A stretch of 62,599 nucleotides of DNA, filler included, from Mytilus trossulus (taxonomy: Eukaryota), in assembly GCF_036588685.1 (NCBI RefSeq). It is 2 parts of one record of this genome, joined end to end, with 100 filler letters (N's around TTAATTAATTAA, not from the genome) between each part and the next. Parts side by side here need not be neighbours in the genome. Positions count along the whole stretch, not along the records: positions 31,232 to 62,599 come from NC_086377.1; 1 more part is not named here. One strand, written 5' to 3'. A program made the position numbers and the translations under genes. A model generated the notes under the pieces. That model ran no database searches. It saw only the letters and a list, made by a program, of their open reading frames with translations, and was not told the origin of the DNA. The number at the start of each line of letters is the position of its first letter. Positions within the stretch are counted from its first letter, which is position 1. Positions 31,571-60,009 of the stretch are shown in pieces.

Positions 31571-32514
31571 GTTTTTTGCCTTCTTCTTATAAAAACCAAT
31601 ACTACTAAGCAGAACGTTTCACTATGGTATTTTGATAAACAATGAGTATTTGTCGGAATCATGTCGATACTTGGTTTTTTTTCAAAGAGATTTTCCATAT
31701 GTATGGCGAATAGAAAAACTAAGAAAATTCTGATGATGTTATACACTTACGATTAGAATATAGACACAACAAAACGATAGGCATTAGATAGATCTTGGTT
31801 TAGTCTGAAATTGTCTCGACCAAGGCTAGACCAGTGTCGACCAGTCTCGACCTATCTCGACTAGTCTTGACCTTAAATTGTTTTTGTCTTGACCGGTCTG
31901 AAGCAGCCCATCTCATTAAATTAAATATAGATGTTATAAAATTCTAGGTTATTTGGTTGTTTAATTCATTGCTGTTATATAAAAGAATTAAATCAATACA
32001 TAAAAAAAATGATTAAATTTAGATAGTCATCTTTTGATTATTACTATAACTTTTTCAAGTCAACTTGGATTTTCATAAAACTCTACAGCTATCTTAATTA
32101 TTCTTTGATCTTACAGAATACGAGGTTGTTTGGGGCTATTGGTACTTTACGGAACGGAACGGAACGGAACGGAACGGAACGGAACAGAATTTCATTTAAG
32201 GTATCCAAAGGGGGCATTTATCAAAATTTCGAAAAATCTTTAAAACAAAACAAACTTTAAAATTTCTGTGTTTTACGGTTTTCCATATACAAAGAACACA
32301 AATGTACTATAATCTCATCTTCACAGGTGAAATGTGCAATAATGTATAACATCGGGAACTATTCTGTAAATAAATATGTCGGATTGTCCTGATAAATTAT
32401 CATGAAATTAACGCATTTGCAAGTCATGCATTATGATATCTAGACTGACCTCACGTCGTCCTTTCCGACGATGATTAGACACATTGGTTCTGATTTTAAC
32501 TTTTTAAATTTATT

Positions 32515-35500
32515 ATTCCGTTCCGCAAAGTACCAATTGCTCTGAGGAATTGGTATTTAACGGAATCGAACGGAACCAGACATTTATAATGAAATAAAAG
32601 TAGTATGATAAAAAAAAAATGTGTCTGACACCCCTTTTTGCAGAAGAAATAAGTGTTTTAGATAGCATTCCCGACCAGATAAATAATTTATTTACCAATG
32701 GAAGGAGTAAGATTTTTTGTTTTTGTCTAAGCTGCCTTTGTTTTAAATTCTTAATAATTAAGAATTTAAAACAAAGGCAGCTTAGACAAAAACAAAAAAT
32801 CTTACTCCTTCCATTGGTAATTATATTTTTTAAAAGAGGCCTTCCACCTCTCGTGCCGACGAGAATTAGAAACAGTAATCAAGTTGAATCTGATTTAAAC
32901 TTTTTAATTTATTATTCCGTTCCGTTCCGTTCCGCAAAGTACCAATTGCTCTGAGGAATTGGTATTTAACGGAATCGAACGGAACCAGACATTTATAATG
33001 TAATAAAAGCAGTATGATAAAAAAAATGTGTCTGACACCCCTTTTTGCAGAAGAAATAAGTGTTTTAGATAGCATTCCCGACCAGATAAATAATTAAGAA
33101 TTTAAAACAAAGGCAGCTTGGACAAAAACAAAAAATCTTACTCCTTTCATTGGTAATTATATTTTTTAAAAGGCCTTCCACCTCTCGTGCCGACGAGAAT
33201 TAGAAACAGTAATCAAGTTGAATCTGATTTAAACTTTTTAATTTATTATTCCGTTCCGTTCCGTTCCGCAAAGTACCAATTGCTCTGAGGAATTGGTATT
33301 TAACGGAATCGAACGGAACCAGACATTTATAATGTAATAAAAGCAGTATGATAAAAAAAAATGTGTCTGACACCCCTTTTTGCAGAAGAAATAAGTGTTT
33401 TAGATAGCATTCCCGACCAGATATATAATTAAGAATTTAAAATAAAGGCAGCTTAGACAAAAAGTCTTACTCCTTCCATTGGTAATTATATTTTTTAAAA
33501 GAGGCCTTCCACCTCTCGTGCCGACGAGGATTAGAAACAGTAATCAAGTTGAATCTGATTTAAACTTTTTAATTTATTATTCCGTTCCGTTCCGTTCCGC
33601 AAAGTACCAATTGCTCTGAGGAATTGGTATTTAACGGAATCGAACGGAAACAGACATCTATAATGTAATAAAAGCAGTAGGATAAAAAAAATGGGTCTGA
33701 CACCCCTTTTTGCAGAAGAAATAAGTGTTTTAGATAGCATTCCCGACCAGATAAATAATTAAGAATTTAACACAAAGGCCGGATAGACAAAAAGTCTTAC
33801 TTCTTCCATTGGTAATTATATTTTTTAAAAGAGGCCTTCCACCTTTCGTTCCGACGAGGATTAGAAACAGTGATCAAGTTGAATCTGATTTAAACTTTTT
33901 AATTTATTATTCCGTTCCGTTCCGTTCCGTAAAGTACCAATTGCTCTGAGGAATTGGTATTTAACGGAATCGAACGGAACCAGACATTTATAATGTAATA
34001 AAAGCAGTATGATAAAAAAATGTGTCTGACACCCCTTTTTGCAGAAGAAATAAGTGTTTTAGATAGCATTCCCGACCAGATATATAATTAAGAATTTAAA
34101 ATAAAGGCAGCTTAGACAAAAAGTCTTAATCCTTCCATTGGTAATTATATTTTTTAAAAGAGGCCTTCCACCTCTCGTTCCGACGAGGATTAGAAACAGT
34201 GATCAAGTTGAATCTGATTTAAACTTTTTAATTTATTATTCCGTTCCGTTCCGTTCCGCAAAGTACCAATTGCTCTGAGGAATTGGTATTTAACGGAATC
34301 GAACGGAACCAGACATTTATAATGTAATAAAAGCAGTTTAATAAAAACATGTGTCTGACACCCCTTTTTGCAGAAGAAATAAGTGTTTTAGATAGCATTC
34401 CCGACCAGATAAATAATTAAGAATTTAAAACAAAGGCAGCTTAGACAAAAACAAAAAATCTTACTCCTTTCATTGGTAATTATATTTTTTAAAAGAGGCC
34501 TTCCACCTCTCGTGCCGACGAGAATTAGAAACAGACTGTCAGTAATCAAGTTGAATCTGATTTAAACTTTTTAATTTATTATTCCGTTCCGTTCCGTTCC
34601 GCAAAGTACCAATTGCTCTGAGGAATTGGTATTTAACGGAATCGAACGGAACCAGACATTTATAATGTAATAAAAGCAGTATGATAAAAAAAAATGTGTC
34701 TGACACCCCTTTTTGCAGAAGAAATAAGTGTTTTAGATAGCATTCCCGACCAGATAAATAATTAAGAATTTAAAATAAAGGCAGCTTAGACAAAAACAAA
34801 AAATCTTACTCCTTCCATTGGTAATTATATTTTTTAAAAGAGGCCTTCCACCTCTCGTGCCGACGAGGATTAGAAACAGTAATCAAGTTGAATCTGATTT
34901 AAACTTTTTAATTTATTATTCCGTTCCGTTCCGTTCCGTAAAGTACCAATTGCTCTCAGGAATTGGTATTTAACGGAATCGAACGGAACCAGACATTTAT
35001 AATGTAATAAAAGCAGTATGATAAAAAAATGTGTCTGACACCCCTTTTTGCAGAAGAAATAAGTGTTTTAGATAGCATTCCCGACCAGATATATAATTAA
35101 GAATTTAAAATAAAGGCAGCTTAGACAAAAAGTCTTACTCCTTCCATTGGTAATTATATTTTTTAAAAGAGGCCTTCCACCTCTCGTGCCGACGAGGATT
35201 AGAAACAGTAATGAAGTTGAATCTGATTTAAACTTTTTAATTTATTATTCCGTTCCGTTCCGTTCCGTTCCGCAAAGTACCAATTGCTCTGAGGAATTGG
35301 TATTTAACGGAATCGAACGGAAACAGACATCTATAATGTAATAAAAGCAGTAGGATAAAAAAAAATGGGTCTGACACCCCTTTTTGCAGAAGAAATAAGT
35401 GTTTTAGATAGCATTCCCGACCAGATAAATAATTAAGAATTTAAAACAAAGGCAGCTTAGACAAAAAGTCTTACTCCTTCCATTGGTAATTATATTTTTT

Positions 35501-35760
35501 AAAGAGGCCTTCCACCTCTCGTTCCGACGAGGATTAGAAACAGTAATCAAGTTGGATCTGATTTAAACTTTTTAATTTATTTTTCCGTTCCGTTCCGTTC
35601 CGCAAAGTACCAATTGCTCTGAGGAATTGGTATTTAACGGAATCGAACGGAAACCGACATCTATAATGTAATAAAAGCAGTATGATAAAAACAAGTCAGA
35701 CCCTTCTTTTTTGAATGAGTGGTAAGTGTTTTAGATAGCATTTCGACTTGATCAATATTT
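32515..35760 (+). repeat. Left-arm tandem array of ~330-bp units (10 junction motifs)
   Basis: GTACCAATTGCTCTGAGG recurs near 32530, 32939, 33273, 33604, 33934, 34263, 34606, 34943, 35277 and 35607. Confidence 0.92.
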
Positions 35761-35762
35761 AA

Positions 35763-36952
35763 ATAAACAGCTGCGCCATGAGCGCATGATACGCCCGTCG
35801 TCTTGTGAAAAAAACAGAAATCTTTTTTGAATAACACAGGGTTGTACAGGATGTCATGCTTAGTATATCCTGACTCCTTCCTTATTCCCGCTCAATAGGA
35901 AGATTCATCATTGTACAAGATGTATTTGGAAACCCGACGCAACATTAGCCTGTTAAGTTTTAAGCAATAGAGATACAGCGCAACATGTGAAAAAAACCTC
36001 TTTTTTTTACAAAAAACTCAATAACTCGAAAATATAAAAATGAATCATCACCAAAAAGTATACAGATCCTTAGATTAATATAAAGAAGTGTGTAAAGTTT
36101 TAAGCAATAATCATAAATCGTTTTTGAGATATGGTGCGACATGTAAACCCCCCTTTTTTTTTTTACAAAATACTCAATAACTCAAAAATGAAATTTTGAA
36201 TCATCACCAAAACGTATACAGATTTTAAGATTAATATAACAAAGACATGTGTAAAGTTTTAAGCAATAATCATAAATCGTTTTTGAGATATGGTGCGACA
36301 TGTAAACCCCCCCTTTTTTTTTTTACAAAATACTCAATAACTCAAAAATGAAATTTTGAATCATCACCAAAACGTATACAGATCTTAAAATTAATATAAC
36401 AAAGACATGTGTAAAGTTTTAAGTAATAATCATAAATCGTTTTTGAGATATGGTGCGACATGTGAAAAAAAACACACCCCTGTTTTAGTTACAAAGTGCC
36501 GTAACTCAAAAAGTTGTAATCTTATTTTCACAAAAAAAACCTCCCCCTTTTTTACAAAATACTCAATAACTCAAAAATTAAATTTTGAATCATCACCAAA
36601 AAGTATACAGATATTAAGATTAATATAACTAAGAAGTATTTAAAGTTTAAAGCCATAATCAAGAATCGTTTTTGAGATACGGTGCGACATGTGAAAAAAA
36701 CACACCCCTGTTTTAGTTACAAAGTACCGTAACTCAAAAAGTTGTAATCTTATTTTCACAAAAGAGTATACAGATCATTTGACCATCATAAGAAACAACT
36801 ATGTTAAGTTTCATGAAATTTGGATAAGTCGTTCTCAAGTTACGGTGCGACATGTTTACACCGGACAGACGGACAGACGGGCGGACGGACGGACGGACAC
36901 TGGACATTTGTATACCATAATACGTCCCGTCAAAATTGACGGACTTTTAAAA
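35763..36952 (-). mobile_element. Helentron-associated non-autonomous element (HINE) nested in the Foldback arm
   Basis: TGCGC-CATGA-GCGCA hairpin plus ATACGCCCGTC at one end; ATACGTCCCGTCAAAATTGACGGAC palindrome at the other; GGAC microsatellite; internal ~120-bp tandem repeats; the host 330-bp unit resumes at ~36953. Confidence 0.8.
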
Positions 36953-37097
36953 AATAACACAAAGACAGGTTAGACAAAAGGTCTTTCTACTTCCATTGGT
37001 AATTATAAATTAAAAAAGGGGCCTTCCGAAGATGATTAGAAACAGTGATCAAAACTTGACAGACAAAAGATTGACGTGCGAGTTTAAGACAATGTAA

Positions 37098-37269
37098 TGT
37101 GATGCCTGAAACACTTCTCAAGCAACGTGGGTCCTATTTGGCACCACAAATAGCAGAGATCTACAAAAAGCTTGGCTGTGACAAAGAGACGTCTGCAGTA
37201 CTCAAACTTTATTTATAGAACGAACAACATAAAAACAAGTACACAATCCCGAACCTTATAACCGTTACA
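37098..37269 (-). repeat. 3' LTR
   Basis: Direct repeat of 41026-41197 with 7 substitutions by manual count; preceded on - strand by PPT AAAGAAAAAGGGGGATAG (37270-37287). Confidence 0.93.
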
Positions 37270-37343
37270 CTATCCCCCCTTTTCTTTATAAACAGACAGT
37301 TCTCAATAAGAATATCTCTTATTTTTTTGCACAAATGTTTTTG

Positions 37344-38500
37344 TCAATCTTTGAAACGTAAGGGTTGGTTTATTTTGCGTCCATATCGACTGATTTTAGG
37401 TGGGTGCTTTTCTTTTGTCATCTGATGATTCCCAGGTAAGCCTGGAGCCTGTGTCCTCGACTCACTGGAATCTGAACTGTCATCCATCTTGGGTGAAATC
37501 TTTGGATTTAAGGCATCATTGAGAGACCCTATCTTCTTGGTTACGTTTGCATGGGTCTTGCTACCACTTGAGACTGGACTCAGTGTCTCCGAATCACGTG
37601 ATATAATCTCCTTCTGTTCTGATTCATCATCTTGTTTGGTTGAATTCTTGCCCGAATCTAAACTTTGTATCGTCTGTTCTAATGAACATATGATATAGTC
37701 TTCAAATAGTGAATTCTCTTTCTTTGAACTATCAGATTTATCGTCGTTAGCCGCATCATAAGCATCTGAAATTTCGACAACAAATTCTTGCGATAGCTTA
37801 ATATTCTTGTTCTCAAACCAACCTGAGTCTGGAGCCTGTGTCCTCGGCTCATGTGGCACATTTGAACCAATCGCACTTACCTCGTCCATGTCTGAAACAT
37901 TATCTTTTTCAAGATTATCCTGTAGGCGAGTTTCCACTAAAACCGACCCAGTGTTGTTATTGTCTTGTAAGGAAGCTGGGTCTAAAACATCAACAATACT
38001 TTCTTTTAGACTTTCAACTCCTCCATATACATCTGTCTCGTCCATGGGCTTTAAAGTATCTAAAGTGGGTTCCATTCCAGCCGTCACTCTTGATATTTGG
38101 CAATCATTTTCTGTTCGATACCGTCCTGGTATCAGCTCATTATTTATCAGCAGATCACCTTATTTGGCCATTATGATACCATCTACTTCTTTCAGTAAGT
38201 CTATTCCAATCAAAATATCATCTCTTATGGGGGCAATGCATACTCTCCAAATTATCTCCTTTTTACCCAGTTGAAGCTTTGCAACAATATTCATGTCAGC
38301 CTCCATTTCTTTCCCATTTTCTGCATTCAATAAGCAAGCTTTTATACCGGTAGTACCGCTCAAACCAATACAATTTGCAAAGGATCTTGAAAGTACCGTT
38401 ACATCTGCTCCTGTATCAACAATAGCATCGACCTTATTGCCATTGACTTGAATTGGAATGAGTAAATCTTGTCCTCTGCCAATTTGATAATATATCTCCT
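37344..38500 (-). pseudogene. Retroviral-type aspartic protease followed by an acidic low-complexity tail; in-frame stop at 38160-38162
   Basis: Manual translation LLIPIQVNGNKVDAIVDTGADVTVLS ... DDILIGIDLL; same frame continues through TAA into the 247-aa ORF ending SRYGRKINQPLRFKD. Confidence 0.85.
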
Positions 38501-40343
38501 TTCACAATCAGCACCAGTATCTTGTCTTCTCATAGGGCTGGGGGATCGTGATCTTTTTGGACAATCACGTTTGAAATGGCTTTTATCGCCACAAAAATAA
38601 CATCCCGTTGACTGTGCTGTCAAGGTAGCTGGTTTTGAATCATGCAGCATGGCCCTTTCTAAAAGACCTCTTAGTGCTTTGATTTCATTCTGTAATGTTT
38701 GATTATCTGGTTTCCGAAATGAATTTACCAACTGCCTAACGCTGTCCATCCCTTCATATTGGTCAGTACTCTTTTCCTCTTCATCTTTCCACGTAACGCG
38801 TCTGGTCCTTTGTTTTGTATTATAATCAACATCCCTGCCCAACGTAGCATGATAATTGTGTTGTAGTTGTACAACAATATCTAGTGCTGAAGATACAGTC
38901 TAAGGTTGGTGGTTTAAAGCTTCATATGCTATTTTGGCGTTCTTGTGGCCCTTCAAAAAGTGTTCCGCTGCAAGTTCCTCTTGTAACTCGATACTACTTG
39001 TTGGGTATGCTCTTGAGACTAATCGTCTTACTTCTTCAGCAAACTCTTCATTCTTTTCATTGTGTTGTCTTAAATCAGATAGTTTTTTTCGTGCAGTGGA
39101 TGGGGGCTCTTTTCGGTTGAACCTGTTTTCCTTGTGACGCGAATTGGATTCAAAAGTATCTCTTTCCTGTCGAGGAATTGCGGTCATAAATTTACTCGCC
39201 TGTCCTCGCAGGCATTCAATGTACCTATCTAACTTTTCCTCCTCTGTCCATTCGTTTCTCCTAGCTTCCCTGTTGAATGGGATAATAAACCCCTCATAAT
39301 CATCCTTCCCGTCGAATGTTGGAAGTTTTTGGTGCGGAACGTCACTATTTGGTACTTTTTGTCTTGTCTGCTGTGTATTGTTACTACTGTGCATAGCTTC
39401 AATATCACTAGAAAACGAAGGTTGTATGTTTCTTATCAAATCTTGTCTATTATTAGTGTTCATAGACCTCGACCTAGACTCCCATCTTTCTATAGTGCTT
39501 AACAACGGTTTAAAAGGGGGGAGTGTTGTGGTATCCCTTGGTGTTGATGACAATGGTGTGTGTGAATTAGCATTTAGTCTGGGACTGTTCCCGCGACCAA
39601 ACTGCAAACTCCCGTTCTGTCTGTCATCATCTAAATTCTGTGTTGTTGTATCCCTTTGTGTTGATGACAATGGTGTGTGTGAATTTGCATTTGGTCTGGG
39701 ACTGTTCCCGCGACCAAACTGCAAACTTCCGGTCTGTATGTCATCATCTGTATTCTGGGACGATGGCCTGGGACTGTTCCCTAGACCGAACTGCAAATAT
39801 CCTATTGGTTGATTATCTAAACTAAATGAAGGTGGTCTGGGACTGTTCCCACGACCGAACTGTAAAACCGATTTCGGCTTGCTATCTTGACCGAACAGAG
39901 ATTGTCTGTGACTGTTCTCTTGGTCAACCTGAAAACTGTCAACTGGTTTGTTTTCACCTAACTTAGGGTCTAGGTGTTCATTATTTCCATCATATAATCC
40001 ATACTTTGGACAAATAGAAGACCCAGAAAAATCGTCAACTGTGTAACCGGAAGTATTAGTTCCTGTGCTCTTAATGTCGGATTTCGATGTCTCCCGGTTC
40101 TGCAAAAACGTATTGTTCATTTCTTCTATACTTCTACTTTGTTGGTAGAGTAGCTGCATTGTATTGGCAGAAACCTCATCCTGTTTTCTAAACATATGTC
40201 ATGGTGTCAGCCAAGGTTCCCATGTCGTTCCCCATTCTTTCTAACACGTTAAGCATTTTTATGCCAAACTGATCACCATTTGGCGGGGAATCTTCGCTGA
40301 CTTTTCGATCAGAACCCGTCTCTACTACTGTATCGTCATTCAT
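38500..40343 (-). pseudogene. gag: gag (capsid-like region and CCHC zinc knuckle), disrupted
   Basis: KLPTFDGKDDYEGF...W...LRGQA and LRQ..E..EEFA motifs; CYFCGDKSHFKRDC; in-frame TAG at 38900-38902 joins two ORFs; probable ATG at 40343 with a frameshift near 40195. Confidence 0.85.
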
Positions 40344-41010
40344 GTTTATTATTAAATTGCAATTTATAAAAGATTGTAATTTTCAATCCTGTGGATCGAC
40401 GTGTACTGAAAATGATTCCCTATCTAACCAATACTCTTGGCATATGTCAAGTGGTAATCTTCTAAACCACTTTTGTGCCCATATTCTTTTAGGATGAAGC
40501 CCGTCTCTTAGCAGGTGAAAATTAATATTTTGTCTGTTGTGTGATGACGAGTGGAATAGACCTGAGATAGTTGTGTAGAACAGTTTCACTCATAAGTCCT
40601 TTATTTTCTAAATTCGATCTGTAATACTTAAAAAACACGTATTACATGAAACAGTCTAAAAATATGCAAATTATTATGATACAAAATGCAAATCTTGACT
40701 AAAATAAAATAAAAAATAAAAAATAAAAATGTTTTTGTATGTCCAGTAATTTGGTGACGAGGTCGGAGCCACCGGAATTATTTTTTTTCAAATACAAATT
40801 TTCGTCAGCTAAATTTTTTGTAAAATTAAAACAATTTTCAGTATTTAAAGTATAAAAATCATACGATCTCACCGGAATAATTATGTTTGGGTTGTGATTG
40901 ACGGGGATCCGCTTCTGGATCGCCCAATCGTCGACTCACGTGGTTTTCCAAACTGGCAACTTTCCGATGAATTTTCAAACTTCTCAGTCGAATAAATTCA
41001 CAATAGTCGA

Positions 41011-41024
41011 CACTTCTGACACCA
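41011..41024 (-). promoter_or_regulatory. Primer binding site complementary to the tRNA-Leu 3' end
   Basis: TGGTGTCAGAAGTG, 1 nt inside the 5' LTR boundary. Confidence 0.85.
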
Positions 41025-41025
41025 G

Positions 41026-41197
41026 TGTGATCCCTGAAATATTTCTCAAGCAACGTGGGTCCTATTTGGCACCACAAATAGCAGAGATCTACAAAAAGCT
41101 TGGCTGTGACAAAAAGACGTCTGCAGTACTCAAACTTTATTTAAAGAACGAACAACATAAAAACAAGTACACAATCCCGAACCCAATAACCGTTACA
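41026..41197 (-). repeat. 5' LTR
   Basis: TGTAACGG...TCACA on - strand; matches 37098-37269. Confidence 0.93.
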
Positions 41198-41619
41198 GTA
41201 ATTAAAAAATTGACACTGTCATAGTTTAAGTACACTTGTATTTCTACATCAAAAGCTTATGTCATTCGCACTGTATATTGTCAAAGTTGCGGACTTCTAA
41301 TTTAATAAAAGGTTAATTTTGATATTTTCATTTGTAACCACTGTAATGACGCCGGGTATAATTGACGAGAGCTTTGTTTTTATTCAAGACATTTTTTTTC
41401 ATTTTTTTTTTTAACTTAAATACACATGCATGATATTCATTAGCACAATTTAAAACTTACATTCAAATGAATTCCAAGAGGATCAACATTACTTTAGACA
41501 TACAAATGTAGCAACTCATTCCGAACTGTAATAATTAACGACAACATTTTTTTGCCCATTTCATCATTTTTTTTCCCGAAAATTTTAAAATATAATAAGG
41601 AATGGATGGATTTTGGGTA

Positions 41620-43490
41620 AACCTGCATTTGTGTTAAATTATTTATTAATGATCAGGTCGAGAATGCTATATAAAACAATTACCACTCATTCAAAAAAAG
41701 AAGTGTCAGCCTTTTTTTATCATACTGATTTTATTACATTTGTAGATGTCTGTTTCCGTTCGATTCCGTTAAATACCAATTCCTCAGAGCAATTGGTACT
41801 TTGCGGAACGGAACGGAACGGAATAATAAATTAAAAAGTTTAAAATCAGATTCAACTTGATCACTGTTTCTAATCATCGTCGGAACGAAAGGTGGAAGGC
41901 CTCTTTTAAAAAATATAATTACCAATGGAAGAAGTAAGACTTTTTGTCTATCCGGCCTTTGTGTTAAATTCTTAATTATTTATCTGGTCGGGAATGCTAT
42001 CTAAAACACTTATTTCTTCTGCAAAAAGGGGTGTCAGACACATTTTTTTTTATCATACTACTTTTATTACATTATAAATGTCTGGTTCCGTTCGATTCCG
42101 TTAAATACCAATTCCTCAGAGCAATTGGTACTTTGCGGAACGGAACGGAACGGAATAATAAATTAAAAAGTTTAAATCAGAAACAACTTGATCACTGTTT
42201 CTAATCCTCGTCGGAACGAAAGGTGGAAGGCCTCTTTTAAAAAATATAATTACCAATGGAAGAAGTAAGACTTTTTGTCTATCCGGCCTTTGTGTTAAAT
42301 TCTTAATTATTTATCTGGTCGGGAATGCTATCTAAAACACTTATTTCTTCTGCAAAAAGGGGTGTCAGACACATGTTTTTATCATACTGCTTTTATTACA
42401 TTATAAATGTCTGGTTCCGTTCGATTCCGTTAAATACCAATTCCTCAGAGCAATTGGTACTTTGCGGAACGGAACGGAACGGAATAATAAATTAAAAAGT
42501 TTAAATCAGATTCAACTTGATTACTGTTTCTAATCCTCGTCGGCACGAAAGGTGGAAGGCCTCTTTTAAAAAATATAATTACCAATGGAAGAAGTAAGAC
42601 TTTTTGTCTATCCGGCCTTTGTGTTAAATTCTTAATTATTTATCTGGTCGGGAATGCTATCTAAAACACTTATTTTTTCTGCAAAAAGGGGTGTCAGACA
42701 CATTTTTTTTATCATACTGCTTTTATTACATTATAAATGTCTGGTTCCGTTCGATTCCGTTAAATACCAATTCCTCAGAGCAATTGGTACTTTGCGGAAC
42801 GGAACGGAACGGAATAATAAATTAAAAAGTTTAAATCAGATTCAACTTGATTACTGTTTCTAATTCTCGTCGGCATGAGAGGTGGAAGGCCTCTTTTAAA
42901 AAATATAATTACCAATGGAAGGAGTAAGATTTTTTGTTTTTGTCTAAGCTGCCTTTGTTTTAAATTCTTAATTATTTATCTGGTCGGAAATGCTATCTAA
43001 AACACTTATTTCTTCTGCAAAAAGAGGTGTCAGACACATTTTTTTTTTATCATACTACTTTTATTTCATTATAAATGTCTGGTTCCGTTCGATTCCGTTA
43101 AATACCAATTCCTCAGAGCAATTGGTACTTTGCGGAACGGAACGGAACGGAATAATAAATTAAAAAGTTTAAATCAGATTCAACTTGATTACTGTTTCTA
43201 ATACTCGTCGGCACGAGAGGTGGAAGGCCTCTTTTAAAAAATATAATTACCAATGGAAGGAGTAAGACTTTTTGTCTAAGCTGCCTTTGTTTTAAATTCT
43301 TAATTATTTATCTGGTCGGGAATGCTGTCTAAAACACTTATTTCTCGTGCAAAAAGGGGTGTCAGACACATTTTTTTTTTTATATCATACTGCTTTTATT
43401 ACATTATAAATGTCTGGTTCCGTTCGATTCCGTTAAATACCAATTCCTCAGAGCAATTGGTACTTTGCGGAACGGAACGGAACGGAATAA
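41620..43490 (-). repeat. Right-arm tandem array of the same ~330-bp unit, inverted (6 junction motifs)
   Basis: CCTCAGAGCAATTGGTAC near 41782, 42114, 42443, 42773, 43111 and 43446. Confidence 0.92.
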
Positions 43491-43860
43491 TAAATTTAAA
43501 AAGTTAAAATCAGAACCAATGTTTCTAATCATCGTCGGAAAGGACGACGTGAGGTCAGTCTAGATATCATAATGCATGACTTGCAAATGCGTTAATTTCA
43601 TGATAATTTATCAGGACAATCCGACATATTCATTTACAGAATAGTTCCCGATGTTATACATTATTGCACATTTCAACTGTGAAGATGAGATTAAGTATAC
43701 ATTTGTGTTATTTGTATATGGAAAACCGTAAAACACAGAAATTTTAAAGTTTGTTTTGTTTTAAAGATATTTCGAAATTTTGATAAATGCCCCCTTTGGA
43801 TACCTTAAATGAAATTCTGTTCCGTTCCGTTCCGTTCCGTTCCGTAAAGTACCAATAGCC

Positions 43861-44385
43861 GTTGTTTGGTAGTTTGATTTATTGCTTTCAAATTTGAGAA
43901 TTTAATTAATAGATAAAAAAAAAGCTAGAATTTTCAGTCGGACTGAATTCAGACAGTTAACTTTAAATTTGTTTATTATTTTTTCAAATTATTTTCGATT
44001 TTCATAAAACTGTACAGCTATCTCAGTTATATATTGAATGTCAGGTTGTTTGGTACTTTAGTGTATTGCTGTCAAATCTAATTATTTGATTGATAGGTAA
44101 TTAAATAAGCTAGAATTTTTAAGTTCTGACAGAATTCTGATAGTCACCTTTAAAAAAAATCGTTTTCAAATTAACTTGGATTTTCATAAAACTATACAGC
44201 TAACTCAGCTGTATATATATATTAATGTTACTGAATCCCAGGTTCTTATGTTGTTAGTCATATTGCTGACAAATTTAAGGATTTATTTAATCAAGGTAAA
44301 AAAGCTAGAATAATTATTTCGGACTAAATTCAGATAGTCATCTTTAGATTCGTTTATAACTGTTTCAAAGCAACTTGGATTTCAT
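43861..44385. repeat. Old degenerate ~165-bp tandem repeat (also ~31920-32133), split by the Foldback insertion
   Basis: GATTTTCATAAAACT-TACAGCTA and AAGCTAGAAT recur; the unit continues across the insertion. Confidence 0.7.
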
Positions 44386-45108: not shown

Positions 45109-46822
45109 TTATTTAAAACATTCAAATATAAACATAGACCTGACACCTGCAGAAAGTTTTTGTCGAAACTGCTGACCCATCACTAGATATACTATAAAGT
45201 TCATTGCAAAGCCTATCGATAGACTAAGATGTCTGTATGGTATCAGCTTTCCGTGTAATGTCTCGTTTGAAGAAAGGAAATACAATATACAAACTGCACT
45301 GTTTAGTATTTCCGACAAAATGAAAACAATGCATATGAAAGCAATAGTCAATGCAGATATTCGATTTCTACGTGTTACAGTTGGATGATCTATCCAAGGT
45401 AAGTTTTTTCTTATGATAGTTAATTTACATATGATGTACATTGTACAGATTAAAACTAAGGACACACATAAAAGTATCAAGTTGGTAACGACTAGAATTG
45501 AATATCTGTATGTGCTTTTGAGTTGTTTTTTAATTCTAAATCTAGACAACAATGACCGTCAATCTCTCTCATCCAGTGAAGCGGCAACATAATTAAAAGT
45601 ATGGTCAAGGCTGTAGCTAGCATGACTGACAAAATTATGCATATTAGGATGACCCTATTGGTTAGGTATTCCCTCCTCCATAATGGAAACATCAGAACTG
45701 CTGTTTTCTGTAGACAAGAGATTATTGTGATTAAAATGGACAATAAATGAAAACCATCAGAAATAATATTGACAATGCTATACCAAACACAGAACGGATA
45801 ATCCAATAAAAGACGTATTAGTTTGCCATTTGTAAAACCCATTTGATGATAGTAAAATGAATAAGATATAAATTCTGAACCACACCAAATTAATGCTGAT
45901 AAAGTATCTGATATTGCCAAAGCAGAAAGGAGAATGACCACTGGTGATCTATTTTCCTTTCGTAGAAATATCGATAGTACAAAAATATTAAAAATAGTTA
46001 CAACTACGACTAATACCATTTCTGCATAGGACATTGGGGATTCTAGGATCGATATACTTATAATTTTATATGAGTCCCCTATACATTGGTAATAAATTTT
46101 AAGACAGTCGAATTCTGATTTAAATTCCATGATATTGCCTATACTTAGGAGATATTCTGTTTCATTTTTCTGGTAACCTTGTAATTGAACATACTGATAA
46201 AATGGTTTTATACACGAATCGTCTGCTAACAGAATTAGCTGATGCCGATGGTAACCTTGACTCATTCCCGATAACATTCTTCCTTCAAATAAAACAGGGT
46301 TGTCAATGTGATTATCATGTAGAGATATGATAAATACTTGTTGATTTGTAAAAGACAAATGCTCCCAGCAAGATGTCATGTTCAGAAGGAAAAATATCAT
46401 ATCATCTTGATTTAGACGATATTTTTTCAGGCATAAAAAATTTTGGAACTTCATCGTACACTGCTCAATTTCATCTGTAAAAAAAATATCCAAACCTTTG
46501 AAATATGGAACTTCAAAATCGTCTGTATAAGTGATATTGTATGTTACTAACGAGTCACAAAACAGTTTCCGGAAAGTCACGTCTGTACAGTATTCGAGTT
46601 CCTCCTTTAACTGTGAGACATGAAAGTAGACATCCCCAACAATCTTATTCAGATCTGTTGTTTAGGAACAATTATAGCCTAGTTCTACAACTAAAAGCGT
46701 TGAATCTTGAAATCTAGCCAGGAATGACTGACCTTTATCCAAAGATACCATCTTTCCTAAAACATGAGGGCATACAAGTTGGTATAAGTCGGTAGACTCA
46801 CACATTGTCCTACTTTTAGGAT
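45109..46822 (-). pseudogene. Class A (rhodopsin-like, peptide-receptor/chemoreceptor-like) GPCR, long terminal exon, disrupted
   Basis: TM1 ..IFNIFVL, TM2 LSALAISD, TM3 ending CLQK..V..P, TM7 AMNFIVY..MGQQFRQKL; frameshift probably at the A6 run 45526-45531; in-frame TAA at 46662-46664; candidate acceptor TTTCAG at 46823. Confidence 0.8.
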
Positions 46823-52498: not shown

Positions 52499-55158
52499 TA
52501 ACACATTGGCATATATGATGATCTGTTAAAAGGGAAACCCAAACAATTGGATCCAAAAATTCGAAAGAAGCACAATGACATTAACGCCCAATTCTGTCAG
52601 TAGAACGAAATTAGAAACAATTATCACACAAGTGTGAGGTTTAGCTGGCTATAAAACCAGGTTGAACCAAAAATTTTCTATGGACAATGCCTGTTCAGAC
52701 TGGCAATTGTTTTTCACTAGTTCTGTTGAATAAAAGTGTTTGATTTTGGTAGCCTTTATGGAGTTCCCCTTTTTTTTAACTTGTCTTGTTGTTTGGTGTT
52801 TCTGCTATACTCTTTTATTGTACGATGGAGATTCTGAGAAATTTTAAGTAATTCTGATTGGGGGTATAGGAGAACTATATAGAAATGTGGTCGGTTATGT
52901 GCGGAAATGACAAAGTCCGTTTCGTTCCAAAGTAAAACTCCATAAAGAATTCAAATGGAGAAACGAAGAGAAGAAAGAGTTTAACAAATTCAGTTAAGCT
53001 GTAATGGGTAGTAGCGGATACAACATTTGAGCAGGATGACTGTATGTATTAAGACAAGATGTTCAACAATGGGTCAGTCTTTGCTCTGAATCGACTCGAA
53101 TATAAAAAAAATACTCTTAACAAGAGATCACAAATTTATGAAAATAAAATTCTTTTAAGTAAAAAAAAATATATATAAAATAAGTTAAAGGAAGAGATAC
53201 TCAAAGTTTTTATTTTTAGGAAATTAGAATATCAAAGCTAAGTAAAACGCAGCATTTCAAAATCACAATACAAATTTTGACTTTCGAATTATCAAGAGAC
53301 TATCATCGAACGACCACATTATCCGTTGTTACTCAAACAAATAAAAGAATAGAAACAGCTATAACTAGTTTCAACCCTTCACGATGTAACTGACTTGGCA
53401 CAGGTACACGGAAACGTTGCGGAATGGTTTTATTTCTGTTTATTTATTCTAAGATAGAGGTATATGAACAGCTATAACTATAGTTTACTTTGATTTGGTA
53501 ATTGACTTGGCACCATGTGCACGAAAACGTTGCGGAATGTATTCTTAGATTTGAGCATCTTCACTCGATGTTTAAGTTTTAATGTCCCTCTGGTATCTTT
53601 CAGCTTTATAAATTAACTTCTGTTTTCAGATATATTAAAAGTAATGTACACATAGATGTTATTATAAATAAACAAATTACAAATATGACAACACTTACCA
53701 TCTACGTACCAGAAATGCTGCATCAGAACAAAAGTTACAAAAAACCTAAGCATACTGAACTTTTCGGAATCAAAATTAAAACTAAACTGATTAACAGAGC
53801 AGCGCTGTAACAGATATGTAACGTAAATATCTTTATTAATTTTTAATGAACTGCCATTAGTCTGCTGTTTCAAAAATAATGGCATTGAAAACATATATAA
53901 GGTTGAATATTATATCATTATTCCACTGCATATAAATATTGATAGCTGAAGCAACATTTGAAATGGTTGAAAATGTTTCACCTGACGTTGAACACAACTT
54001 CATATTCACCTGTGAGTATCATATTCCCCTCTGAACATCGGGACTGTCTTGTGCGACGTTACACCCGATTAATGTATATAACGTTAAAAAAAAGAGATAA
54101 ATTTTGTTAAAAATAAAAAAAATATGAATAATTTTTGTTGATAGATGCTGATTATCATGTTTAAGTTATAAAACAAGCGGATTAAAAAATAGTTAATATT
54201 CTATTTCACAGGATGAACAAAAGGTATTGACGCATTCCGTTTCCATTCTCAATGTCAAAGGCAGTGGAATAAAACATTCCTTATCATTGAGTTGTAAATT
54301 TGTTCACCCTCGAAAAGTCATATTTCCATCCATCGATGTCCTGGTGAAATGTTTTTACTTTGTGTGAACACATCTTCATATATCAGAAACGATGCATTCT
54401 CCAATTTTCTTTTGCCAGTTTAGTCTACTCATTATGTCATCCGTCTGAATTTCGCTTTTAATTGTTTGTTGTTAGTGTTTTCAGGATCTAAGCTGACAAG
54501 ATGACGTCTTCTTCATTTATTTGTAACTTACAAATGATATCCCCCTTCCTGGTGTTAAGGGAGGTTCGAGGTCCTCGGTCTTCAGTAATCTATATTGTGT
54601 TTTGTAATTTGTTGTTTGACAAGATTACCAAGTGTTACACGGTATGTATGATAGATGGCATGTTTATTATTCAACATTGTCGGTACAACGTGTAGAAACA
54701 CGAAAAACACGTTCGACAAGAGACAAACGACGGGCATGTGATACTTACTCAATTGCCAATCTGTATCATAATATCGTGGTCTTAATATATATATGCCGTC
54801 GGTTTTGCATCAGTAATCTAATTGAAACCGCTTCATAATGAAAATCTTGATGTAAAAAAGGGGGGGTTGATTAATCAAATTAGGTAAATGAACATTAATT
54901 TACTGAACATAGTTTTTAGTTATGGCAATTTTGCCGCAAAAAACATCCTGTACGTTACCAATGCATTTTATTGATTTATTTAAGATCGAAAGAAATAAAC
55001 TTTCAGAGCATTACTGCTATATGATTGTGTAAGAAAGATAGAAAGGGTTAGTTTTGAAATGATTTACTTTGATGCAGACTCACATTTATATGTTGACACA
55101 AACATGGTTTAAACACAGTGATCAAGCATTCGTTACCTGCTGATATGACCTTAAATTA

Positions 55159-55216
55159 AGTGGTTAGGATTTCTGGTTTTCACCCAGACGACCGGATTCG
55201 ATTCCCGGCATCGGAG
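55159..55216 (+). pseudogene. tRNA-Glu(TTC) pseudogene, 5' end deleted
   Basis: Lacks TCCGATGTGGTCT; T stem mutated. Confidence 0.88.
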
Positions 55217-55545
55217 CTTTAGTTTTTGGTCATCTTCATTTTGTCACTGTTGTTGTAATATATGTCATTAGGAAAAAAAAAAATACAGATGAGAAGTGTA
55301 TTTAGTTTTCCGACTTTCAACTGACATGATAGGACATAGTTACATCATTCGATATTCATACATTTGTAATTGGCAATTTTGAAAAAAAAATGTACATGTA
55401 GTAGTTTGTCTGAATGTTGTAACGTATCACCACAATTAATTTCAAACAACCGTTCATTATTGTTAAGTATTGAACTTATACAACTATCCTCACTCTACAT
55501 TGCCAGTTGGTACTTTAGAAAGTGGCAAAGATAAGAAAAAAGAAA

Positions 55546-55713
55546 TGCATCGGCCGGGAATCGAACCCGGGCCGCCCGCGTGGCAGGCGAGCATTTTGTT
55601 GTAAGTTTTATTTAAATCTCACTTCTATATGCATTTCGAAGATAACAATTACACATATATAAAACGGGCCGCCCGCGTAGCAGGCAAGCCTTCTTCCACT
55701 GAACCACCGATGC
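55546..55713 (-). pseudogene. tRNA-Gly(GCC) pseudogene split by a 69-bp insertion with a 28-bp duplication
   Basis: 55568-55595 repeated at 55665-55692 around an AT-rich insert. Confidence 0.88.
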
Positions 55714-56818
55714 TAATAACACATGATGTCTAACTCGATCATAGTTGGACAGTACATGATTACCACGTGTTACATGGTATGTATGATTGATGTCATGTTT
55801 ATTATACAACATTGTCGGTACAACATGTAGAAACACGAAATACATGTTTGACAAGAGAAAATCGACGGGCATTGGTTTCATCTGTCTTGTGTTTGAATGT
55901 TTACGTATGAAACTATATTACTTAGATATATGAATATGGAACTCTGTTACAGGACGCCGACCTCCCTCTCTATAGGATTTGAAATACATTTCTTTTCCTT
56001 TCGTTAATTTGATCTTTTAATTTACCGATTAAAACCATGATTTCTTTCTTGTGTTTTTTTTTAAATAACCTTTTACTTCCACTTTAACTGACATTATAAG
56101 AAATGGACGATTGAAAAATATATATATTGTATCTACTAGTATATCATATTAGGTGTATGTATAGTCAATAATGATGTTTCAGACAGACAGACATGAACAT
56201 CTTAAAATCTTTCCTTAAAGGTTTAAATAGACAATATACGTATAGTGTCTTGAAATATTAGATTTATTTGTATGAGGCTTAGAAACGGGAAAATGCGAGG
56301 TTCTACCGAGCATTTTCCCGGTTCGTGCCGAATACAAATAAATTTCATATTTCAAGACACTTTACGTATATTGTTTTTAAACTGAAATCGATATAAAACA
56401 AAATGAAAAAAATGAAAAAAATATGCAACAAAAATTGTTATAAAAAGTGTTTGGAATTTCCCTCTTGGTGTACCATTTTGGGGTATTTCCCTATGAGCGT
56501 AGTCCAGGCGGTAAGAAATTGTCATTTTAAGGAATAAGAAAGGGAAAATGAAATCAATTAATAACATTTGATAAACATGGTATGTAAATAACCAACATGA
56601 AGACATAACAATTTTAAATTCATAAAAGTTTGACCATTGTTACTTTACGTTGTTATGGTCGTGACGTGACGTTGTTAATGAAATACAGTAGTTCCGGTAA
56701 GTAGGCGGGTCTCATAGGTTGGACTTGGCTATACTTTTTGGCTATACTTTTTGGACCTTTTGGATTATAGCTCTTCATCTTTTATATAAGCTTTGGATTT
56801 CAAATATTTTGGCCACGA

Positions 56819-58874: not shown

Positions 58875-59615
58875 TTAAGACTTTCTTTCATACTTATCGG
58901 TTGCGTCCTGGATTTTCTGGATATACACATTTAATCGCCAATATGCATCTTGTTTTTTCTTTATGTCCTTGATTTCTCCAAGAACTCTTTCGTTCGTAAT
59001 GAGCAGACTGTTTAATAAATTTGGCAAAGAAATTTCAAAAATACTTTCAATCACCTTACCGTATTCAACACCGAACGAGTTTTCGAAACATTTCGTCAAA
59101 TCAGACAATGACATCTGTGTAAGACATTCATCATATATATTATCAACCAATTGGCGGTGAGATTTCGAACTGTCGAGCAAAACCTTAATCAAGAATATAG
59201 GATAAAACATCACAACAAGGAAAGTCGCGTATATAATTGTTGAAGGTAGAATCAAACGTCCAACCAAAAAGGTAGTAACGAAGTTACTGTATTGCACCCT
59301 TTCATTTTTTCCTGTCAGAGCGAACTCAATTTCCTGTACTCTAGTACCGACTTCTTTGACAAACAATCTGATTTTTGTGTCTGCATCTTCAATGATTAAT
59401 TTCACTTCATGTCCCCTGCACCATTGTTTAATTCCAGACTTAATCCGTGATCGCACTGCTTGCACAAGTGACAAGTACATGACGTTATTGATTTTTTCTT
59501 TACCAGGAGGATTTAAAATCTCTTCCCGTCCATCATCTGAACGTAGGTAAGCATACAACTTCTCCGTGAGAATTGCAATGGTCTCGGTTTTATGCATTTC
59601 TATTTCTGTTCTTTT
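58875..59615 (-). CDS. Terminal exon of a helical protein with a central hydrophobic segment (possibly the C-terminus of a dynamin/mitofusin-like GTPase)
   Basis: 246-codon open frame in AT-rich DNA; in-frame acceptor TTCACAG at 59616; coiled-coil-like ends flanking FVTTFLVGRLILPSTIIYATFLVVMFYPIFLIKVLL; family assignment is inference. Confidence 0.7.
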   Translation of the reverse strand, partial: KRTEIEMHKTETIAILTEKLYAYLRSDDGREEILNPPGKEKINNVMYLSLVQAVRSRIKSGIKQWCRGHEVKLIIEDADTKIRLFVKEVGTRVQEIEFALTGKNERVQYSNFVTTFLVGRLILPSTIIYATFLVVMFYPIFLIKVLLDSSKSHRQLVDNIYDECLTQMSLSDLTKCFENSFGVEYGKVIESIFEISLPNLLNSLLITNERVLGEIKDIKKKQDAYWRLNVYIQKIQDATDKYERKS

Positions 59616-60009
59616 CTGTGAATATGAATAAATACAGATATGATAAAATAAAAATTGATTTTTTAACTACTCTACGCTATACTGGAAATGTGTAGATTTT
59701 ATATTTTTTTTATCTGAAATTCTGAAATTTCTTATTTCTTTTGTTGTATTTTCTAATCAATAATTTCTGCGATAAACAGTTCCAGAGTTTAATCGAGATT
59801 GTTTGGCTATGTTCATATTTTTGGGAATTACTTCTCTTTTCACAGTCCCATTTAGATTACGAAGAGATATCGTCCGCTTTGTAAAAAGAAAGATTAGAGA
59901 TCCCTTTCTCCAAGATTTCAAGATTTCAAGATTTATTGATAACGCTCAGACACATAAATGTGTAATACATAAACAATTGAAAAACGAAATGAGCATGCAG
60001 TACTCTAAC

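Follow-up and report, generated by a model that had tools for sequence, protein, structure and literature searches.

Foldback elements are typically met as few broken copies, and in Drosophila FB the terminal inverted repeats (TIRs) are modular, composite and variable in length. An element of this kind was studied in a 62,599-nucleotide stretch of Mytilus trossulus DNA, filler included (the window, along which positions are counted), together with its family. Described systems are compared with it as far as the available parts of the cited reports cover them.

The closest known element is Tetris of Drosophila virilis. Like the present family it is non-autonomous, with an outer flanking domain, a variable number of related tandem units, 8-10 bp target-site duplications (TSDs) and no partner found, and Mutator was proposed from the TSDs (PMC4079207). 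Tetris has three complete copies with TIRs of up to 1735 bp, compared with 64 intact copies and arms of up to about 13 kb here (PMC4079207). The 220-bp units of Tetris escaped into long arrays, whereas about 95% of the family's unit junctions lie within elements (PMC4079207). Unlike Tetris, the family has a 331-bp unit flanked by two opposed terminus motifs, and dead-element cargo common to its copies (PMC4079207).

Muta1, a MULE of Aedes aegypti, is similar in having 8- and 9-bp TSDs in one family (PMC5225508), a foldback-type TIR that combines a terminal motif with subterminal repeats, and non-autonomous derivatives with captured interiors (PMC5225508, PMC5499845). Muta1 has a known transposase and TIRs of 145 bp that contain 12-bp repeats, whereas the family has kilobase arms and no transposase was found (PMC5225508, PMC5499845). 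Tm1 of Meloidogyne shares composite, modular TIRs of variable length, a 9-bp TSD and mostly non-coding copies, but has repeat motifs of ~14 bp and one copy with a Phantom-class transposase; fixed retrotransposon cargo is not mentioned in the available part of that report (PMC3169594). In Galileo internal ~210-bp repeats make TIR length variable, each side varying on its own, and TIRs can take up adjoining internal sequence, but the TSD is 7 bp, the transposase is P-type and the TIRs are much shorter (PMC3573991). Outside subscription journals, supplements, Repbase and Dfam, the literature searched held no description of the family or of an LTR cargo carried throughout a foldback family.

Structure of the Element

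The initial annotation described a Foldback-type transposon at 32134..43860. The observation was confirmed, while its interpretation was supported in part. The features of the locus are as follows.

31948..32124, plus strand: target DNA, the old ~185-bp tandem repeat on the left side, in register with the right-side units
32125..32133, plus strand: left 9-bp TSD, GTTGTTTGG
32134..32545, plus strand: left outer domain, with 19-nt terminus, (ACGGA)n tract, ~300 bp body and a degenerate inverted terminus copy at its end
32546..35760, plus strand: left arm array, ten unit starts, unit ~331 bp
35761..36953, minus strand: non-autonomous Helentron (HINE-like) insert, ends approximate
36954..37052, plus strand: remainder of the last, degenerate arm unit, cut off by the Helentron insert, 70-78% like the units
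37053..37097, no strand: unique core, left piece, its terminal 4 bp (37094-37097) being the Gypsy TSD GTAA
37098..37269, minus strand: Gypsy-type 3' LTR of 172 bp, with a polypurine tract ahead of it on the minus strand
37270..41025, minus strand: internal region of a defective Gypsy-type LTR retrotransposon
38160-38501: aspartic protease of the Gypsy cargo
38399-38899: zinc knuckle of the Gypsy cargo
38900-40198: gag-like frame of the Gypsy cargo
41026..41197, minus strand: Gypsy-type 5' LTR, 172 bp, with the primer-binding-site-like TGGTGTCAGA next on the minus strand
41198..41586, no strand: GTAA TSD, second copy (41198-41201), then the right piece of the unique core
41587..43448, minus strand: right arm array with six unit junctions, in opposite orientation to the left arm
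43449..43860, minus strand: right outer domain and terminus
43861..43869, plus strand: right 9-bp TSD, GTTGTTTGG
43870..44382, plus strand: continuation of the old tandem repeat right of the element

The termini were exact as reported, the 19-nt terminus occurring once per strand (starting at 32134 on the plus strand and ending at 43860 on the minus strand), and GTTGTTTGG was duplicated at 32125-32133 and 43861-43869. The old ~185-bp repeat continued in register across the insertion, with alignment scores of 172.5 and 179, where shuffled sequence reached at most 79 and 73.5. The outer domains were near-identical as claimed (93.7% alignment with gaps over 570 columns; 1.5% substitution difference). 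The left arm has ten unit junctions and the right arm six, in agreement with the annotated unit numbers, and the period was 329 by TRF. The unique core was indeed small, with ~0.43 kb left (37053-37097 and 41202-41586) after the Helentron-like piece, the Gypsy element and the split degenerate unit were subtracted.

The ~331 bp arm unit carries a degenerate terminus motif at both its start and its end, and has a head and a tail in common with the outer domain. The first left unit contains an 80-bp inverted duplication, missed earlier, which forms a palindrome at 32680-32832.

In two public sequencing runs (X19 and X20) a 317-nt contig followed the left flank to exactly 32133 and then continued with 119 other letters. 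This fits an empty site as judged from the left flank; an empty allele at 32134..43860 is only suggested, not established.

Copies, Termini and Target-Site Duplications

The 1.3-Gb genome contained 158 exact termini, which were matched by eye to give 64 inverted pairs, each 3-32 kb long. All 64 pairs were flanked by TSDs, with 63 distinct sequences among the 64. The TSDs were exact over 9 bp in 31 pairs and over 8 bp in 30, and had one mismatch in three. Thus the 9-bp TSD of the initial annotation holds at this locus but not for the family, in which lengths of 8 and 9 bp are about equally frequent (9 bp in 33/64, 7 bp in none). In a chance control only 9 of 3660 mismatched left/right flank pairs agreed with at most one mismatch over 8 or 9 bp. 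The length of the TSD showed no relation to core orientation or to the 215-bp arm variant.

The intact copies total 0.90 Mb at a divergence of roughly 1%. In the 61 mapped copies arms were 0.7 to about 13 kb long with 0-39 unit junctions each. The outer domain is 412 bp, and a mini copy (L217) measures 231 bp. Long inverted arms, an outer domain, internal tandem repeats and a variable repeat number, which define the Foldback structural class, were all present. The family is young, multi-copy, non-autonomous and Foldback-type. The initial proposal of a non-autonomous family was upheld by 64 copies with distinct TSDs and no transposase in any of them.

Long inverted arrays are difficult to assemble, and the copies are described here from the assembly. 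An artefact of assembly is nevertheless extremely unlikely, as is an inverted satellite spread by segmental duplication. The 64 loci lie on 14 large and three small contigs with unrelated flanks and TSDs of their own, the flanking repeat keeps its register from one side of the insertion to the other, and contigs matching the outer domain were present in four public sequencing runs.

Variant-terminus patterns gave one chance-level match and two places that were known already. DNA searches with two diverged relatives (L214 and L215) returned an old duplicated cluster on contig C2 only and no further copy.

Nested Cargo

The initial annotation called these elements nested; they are fixed cargo of the family rather than insertions unique to this copy. 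The Helentron junction was found at the same site in 60 of the 64 copies and is family-wide cargo; the Gypsy junction was at the same site in 56, and three had an empty GTAA site.

The 1.2-kb Helentron insert contains subTIR and IR sequences, a (GTCC)n microsatellite, ~160-bp tandem repeats and a 3' subTIR with palindrome. The bivalve non-autonomous Helentrons Cg_HINE, pearl and MgE have the same features (PMC7492417, available part). The marks of a HINE, namely a 5' subTIR with IR, a microsatellite, central repeats and a 3' subTIR with palindrome, are all found in the insert when it is set against that account (PMC7492417). The likeness covers one cargo piece only, which here rides in a TIR element.

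The second cargo has the features of an LTR element: TG...CA LTRs, a 4-bp TSD, a primer-binding site, a polypurine tract, and gag and protease. The primer-binding-site-like TGGTGTCAGA is presumably of the tRNA-Leu type. The reverse transcriptase (RT), RNase H and integrase of the Gypsy order were lacking, with no match to RT or integrase families in the four frames scanned and RNase H likewise absent. The cargo is labelled Gypsy because of its gag-protease order and 4-bp TSD. A relative 87-92% identical to it (L291) has RT-like frames, as judged by eye.

The LTR pair of the locus copy diverged by 4.1%. Across the family the two LTRs of one copy were 2.75% apart, compared with 1.4% and 1.0% for same-side LTRs of different copies, and in all 29 copies scored the left LTR had its closer match in the left LTR of another copy, not in its own partner. 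This pattern points to a single Gypsy insertion that was later multiplied by DNA transposition. Of 91 LTR-motif matches, 89 were inside family loci, as assigned by eye.

Spread of the cargo by its own retrotransposition, with repeated targeting of the element, would be the alternative. The same defective Gypsy also occurs free (L290, 94.7% identical) with its own 4-bp TSD, so the defective form did retrotranspose at some time. However, 56 copies share one insertion site, one TSD and one orientation with respect to the core. Fresh retrotransposition yields two identical LTRs, and within-copy pairs were never identical (minimum difference 1.7%). Together with the same-side pattern this largely refutes self-spread, which we regard as very improbable beside a single insertion multiplied with its carrier.

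Arm Dynamics

Outer domains differed by 0.70% within a copy and by 1.3% between copies (48 copies). Only 16 of 40 copies had their own partner as the strictly closest sequence, so shared subfamily ancestry accounts for part of the arm-copying signal, and arm homogenisation is partial. At times the sequence of one arm has been copied onto the other, probably during gap repair. At L172-173 the right end is followed by a 100/100 inverted copy of the element's own left flank, and at L059-060 the right core is duplicated onto both sides.

Dispersal of satellite arrays, as put forward in the initial annotation, was overstated. About 95% of exact unit junctions (1457/1532) fell in 92 terminus-anchored loci, so no free satellite array is evident in the assembled sequence; unassembled arrays are possible. 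Long arrays independent of a transposon, which define satellite DNA, were not found in the assembly.

The multi-kb inverted arms are plausible substrates for rearrangement, but the 9-bp swapped-TSD test gave no inversion product: no cross-element TSD partner was found among the 158 ends, and TSDs matched within the element in all 64 pairs.

The Mobilising Transposase

Mutator is the likeliest superfamily for the mobilising enzyme because coding Mutator foldbacks of similar design occur in the genome. These MULE-coding foldbacks of the CG-1/MULE type (L319, L324, L325 and L336) resemble the family in GG ends, arms with ~190-bp repeats and 9-bp TSDs (exact in L319 and L325, two mismatches in L324). 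In L324 and L325 a subterminal motif is repeated in each ~190-bp unit. They differ from the family in terminal sequence, in arms of 0.55-1 kb and in a transposase gene in the core, and are an architectural analogue, not shown as its partner. Every MULE TSD read in the genome was 9 bp, not mixed. Mixed lengths are on record elsewhere, as one Muta1 transposase produced 21 8-bp and 39 9-bp TSDs (PMC5225508, available part). The family's TSDs lie within the 8-11 bp given for MULEs (PMC6446971) and its TIRs exceed the 100 bp given (PMC5499845), as stated in the available parts of these sources.

A transposase-bearing partner with the same termini, as envisaged in the initial annotation, was not found among the part of the candidates scored (150 of 266 MULE and 150 of 225 FLYWCH candidates). 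No coding partner was present between the paired ends of the 64 elements, nor up to 10 kb away from 28 unpaired ends. Copies with an alternative core (L168, L171, L229 and L301) had no long frame and no tblastn match to the transposase frames in hand. Family ends were absent, within 1.5-kb flanks, from 30 MULE loci (of 96 matches) and 30 FLYWCH loci (of 55), and there was no partner in 25 wider loci (20 plus five from the CG-1/MULE clade). Two candidates were set aside. The MULE fragment in the C2 cluster is degenerate and without a tie to the family termini, and the MULE-like frame in L161-164 belongs to a separate nested insert.

A Merlin (IS1595-related) transposase could have mobilised the family with the cargo history unchanged. 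Merlin is defined by GG termini together with TSDs of 8 or 9 bp, and tandem repeats occur in some members (PMC8101967, available part). The family too has a terminal 5'-GG with an 8- or 9-bp TSD, and young Merlin copies occur in the genome. These form a compact 1.6 kb family, however, with TSDs of 8 bp in 7 of 10, of 7 bp in one, none in two, and no 9-bp case. Reported Merlin TIRs are 24-462 bp (PMC8101967), a range outside which the family's arms of 0.7-13 kb fall, although two lengths would suit it, 412 bp for the outer domain taken by itself and 231 bp for the mini copy. None of 30 Merlin loci (of 38 matches) had family ends within 1.5 kb. A Merlin mobiliser is therefore judged unlikely.

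The third candidate is a P-superfamily (Galileo-like) or other DDE transposase. The P element has an 8-bp TSD. Galileo TIRs are long and internally repetitive with a variable unit number, but half of the family's TSDs are 9 bp and none have the 7 bp of Galileo (PMC3573991, available part). Such a mobiliser seems unlikely on TSD length, and a MULE transposase remains the preferred enzyme.

Discussion

The data probably reflect a non-autonomous Foldback family of 64 TSD-flanked copies, likely moved in cut-and-paste fashion by a MULE transposase encoded elsewhere, in which most copies carry Gypsy and Helentron pieces that were each likely inserted once in a founder and then multiplied. An ancestral mini-element with short inverted ends may have been tandemly amplified into the arms, and each junction would then contain two further terminus-like motifs. 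By analogy with Muta1, in which subterminal repeats increase binding and excision (PMC5499845, available part), these are predicted to be extra transposase-binding sites. The Helentron would have inserted into the innermost unit and the Gypsy derivative next at GTAA, after which the resulting lineage may have expanded. Unit number may have changed by unequal exchange, with arm-to-arm copying probably during gap repair.

A bolder and rather doubtful reading is that the arms are arrays of mini-transposons whose head-to-head junctions form a tunable landing strip for transposase, letting composites of 10-30 kb jump, and that the dead Gypsy is kept because it benefits its carrier, for example as a promoter or silencing decoy. 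If true, a retrotransposon would have been turned from RNA copying to a DNA-transposon vehicle, existing nearly as a passenger only (89 of the 91 LTR matches).

The 64 intact copies with 0-39 units per arm provide a natural series for the role of foldback repeats, arm growth and arm copying. A retrotransposon derivative has been multiplied about 56-fold without reverse transcription. Cargo multiplied in this way would mislead LTR-based dating and repeat annotation, giving a false recent Gypsy burst.

The element in the window

The element at 32134..43860 lies within the part 31232-62599 and corresponds to C5:46037535-46049261 (genome G000; C numbers are contigs, L numbers the loci examined). 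The genome surveyed comprised 1.30 Gb in 541 contigs, and the stretch has a GC content of 33%. The termini, the 9-bp duplication at this copy and the outer domains were all found as the initial annotation described them, and its count of 10 versus 6 unit junctions was reproduced. The small unique core and the flanking repeat, in register across the insertion, were also borne out.

A 317-nt contig in two public runs matched the left flank up to 32133 and continued for 119 further nt. The match covers the left flank only and is consistent with an empty allele.

Family size and target-site duplications

The 19-nt terminus had 158 matches genome-wide, 79 per strand, with none for reversed-pattern controls. 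Pairing by position and by eye gave 64 inverted pairs, two extra ends within pairs and 28 unpaired ends. All 64 pairs were inspected, as were 8.5-10 kb from every unpaired end. Target-site duplications (TSDs) were exact over 9 bp in 31 pairs and over 8 bp in 30; the remaining 3 had one mismatch over 8 or 9 bp. Mismatched flank pairs reached this level (one mismatch or fewer) in 9/3660 cases. A TSD was present in 64/64 pairs, and its length is 8 or 9 bp, not simply 9 bp.

Copies ranged from 3,041 to 32,049 bp with a median of 13,631 bp (61 copies), and the summed family length was 901,772 bp. Two unpaired ends belonged to short copies, with one mismatch in the right end and a 9-bp TSD, the smaller being just 231 bp. 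The other unpaired ends were truncated, extended past the examined stretch or were old diverged relatives. Local hopping is suggested by two clusters of copies that have separate TSDs: three copies within 90 kb at C12:6160777-6250786 and two within 100 kb at C13:15756715-15857557.

Arm architecture

A degenerate terminus opens the ~331-bp unit and an inverted one closes it, so each unit junction is a head-to-head terminus pair. The junction folds as a hairpin of -21.3 kcal/mol (a single value, without a shuffled baseline). The outer domain (terminal ~412 bp of each arm) has the head and tail of the unit and a diverged middle. Because unit and outer domain share head and tail, the arm may have arisen from mini-element-like modules repeated in tandem.

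Arms contained 0-39 junctions. The genome had 1532 exact unit junctions; the 64 pairs contained 1306 of them and the unpaired loci 151, so free satellite arrays were not evident in this assembly.

In the arm at L149-151, triplication of a 1568-bp insert also took in adjoining units, which shows that arms expand in multi-unit blocks. An alternative-core subfamily comprised L229 (C3:4.11 Mb), L301 (C8:62.37 Mb), L168 and L171. Another inverted array, of 74-bp units, was nested in this subfamily. The two ends of L229/L301 had ~30 bp of outer flank in common, as did L213 and L226 (33 bp).

Mirror positions were more alike inside one copy than across copies. Outer domains differed by 0.70% within a copy and about 1.3% between copies (48 copies; 13 pairs identical), and first units by a median of 0.9% and 3.5%, respectively (49 copies). 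A stricter test gave a weaker signal, the own partner being strictly closest in 16/40 copies and nearer than the median in 35/40. Two copies show arm-to-arm copying directly. In L172-173 the inner right end is followed by an inverted copy of the left flank (100/100 match), and in L059-060 the right core is duplicated onto the left side.

No swapped-TSD product of inversion was found among the 158 ends compared for 9-bp TSDs, so the suggestion that the element can cause inversions remains a prediction. The expectation comes from Galileo and DAIBAM (discussion of PMC4079207).

Nested elements in the core

Two elements sit in the core: a HINE-like Helentron of 1.2 kb and an LTR retrotransposon of 4.1 kb, which has 172-bp LTRs and a GTAA duplication. 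The retrotransposon had gag, zinc-knuckle and protease matches, of which protease scored above the Pfam cut-offs and the other two below; no RT or integrase was found in it. Among the 64 pairs, both LTR junctions were at the same site in 48, one in 8, and an empty single-GTAA site was present in 3; in 5 the region was lost or another core was present. The nested elements are not peculiar to the window copy, since a same-site LTR junction occurred in 56/64 pairs and the Helentron junction in 60/64.

The two LTRs of one copy differed by 2.75%, never by less than 1.7% (29 copies with both LTRs picked up by the pattern). Between copies, LTRs on the same side differed by just 1.4% and 1.0%, and in 29/29 copies the left LTR had a closer match in the left LTR of another copy than in its partner. 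Internal regions had 97.5-99.2% identity to the window copy (31 alignments over 3 kb). Of 91 exact matches to a 26-nt LTR motif, 89 were inside family loci (assigned by eye from coordinates). Of the remaining two, one was in a free copy flanked by a separate 4-bp TSD and the other in an older relative that has RT-like frames. One old insertion, subsequently multiplied by DNA transposition, would explain all of these site counts, LTR differences, identities and motif locations.

Source of transposase

No transposase was encoded by the family copies examined. A MULE-like frame in L161-164 was rejected as the element's own transposase as it sits in a separate nested insert. The search proposed for a transposase-bearing partner with the same termini found none among the part of the candidates covered (90 loci with short flanks, 25 with wider flanks).

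The same genome contained MULE foldback elements whose arms measure 0.55-1 kb and whose TSDs are 9 bp:
L319, C10:34.88 Mb (716-aa frame tandemly duplicated)
L324, C9:9.17 Mb
L325, C19:2.19 Mb (CG-1 and MULE domains)
L336, C8:56.64 Mb

A MULE transposase probably mobilises the family. Mutator is favoured because Muta1, a MULE transposase, makes TSDs of 8 bp (21 events) and 9 bp (39 events) in the available text of PMC5225508, because the local MULE-coding foldbacks have a similar design (GG ends, arms with ~190-bp repeats, 9-bp TSDs), and because none of the 10 copies scored of the young local Merlin family has a 9-bp TSD. Subterminal repeats raise Muta1 binding and excision (PMC5499845, available text). 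Against a MULE, every local MULE TSD read was 9 bp and the termini of the local foldbacks are unlike those of the family. Mobilisation by Merlin, which has the GG ends and 8/9-bp TSDs of the family (PMC8101967, available text), is unlikely, as the young local family had 8-bp TSDs in 7/10 copies and 9-bp TSDs in none. Other transposases have at least a slim chance.

Other features of the window and genome

The following were also recorded:
Window 1-28284: tandem array seen by self-BLAST, 1104-bp unit, over 99% identity, each unit with two tRNA genes, one on each strand; Rfam gave 50 tRNA matches
Window 54619-55963: diverged ~82% copy of the 1104-bp unit, without tRNA match
Window 45109-46661 and 58875-59666, minus strand: three open frames (149, 389 and 263 aa), none matching Pfam at E 0.01
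L322:3078-7313: long CG-1/MULE frame with a weak Ulp1-like protease match
L323:3630-7343: long CG-1/MULE frame with NADAR (E 6.6e-15)
L305-L309 and L214, C2:51.67-51.73 Mb: duplicated region with four old same-strand relatives of the outer domain
L075-L087 and L094: young Merlin family, 1.64 kb, about 99% identity, short imperfect TIRs, 8-bp TSDs
L314, C11:24.45-24.46 Mb: long inverted duplication spanning at least 9.5 kb, two MULE matches in opposite orientation

By eye, the 149- and 389-aa frames look like a multi-pass membrane receptor. In the C2 region there is also a 203-aa frame, duplicated, which matches DUF7587 weakly and has a putative ADP-ribosyltransferase-like motif.

Comparison with known elements

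No published description of the family was found in the open-access literature searched. It differs from the elements in the papers compared in copy number and arm length. Further differences are the opposed termini at the two ends of each unit and the dead retrotransposon carried family-wide as a passenger. Its structure is that of a foldback, it works in the manner of Tetris and FB-type elements, and it likely belongs to Mutator.
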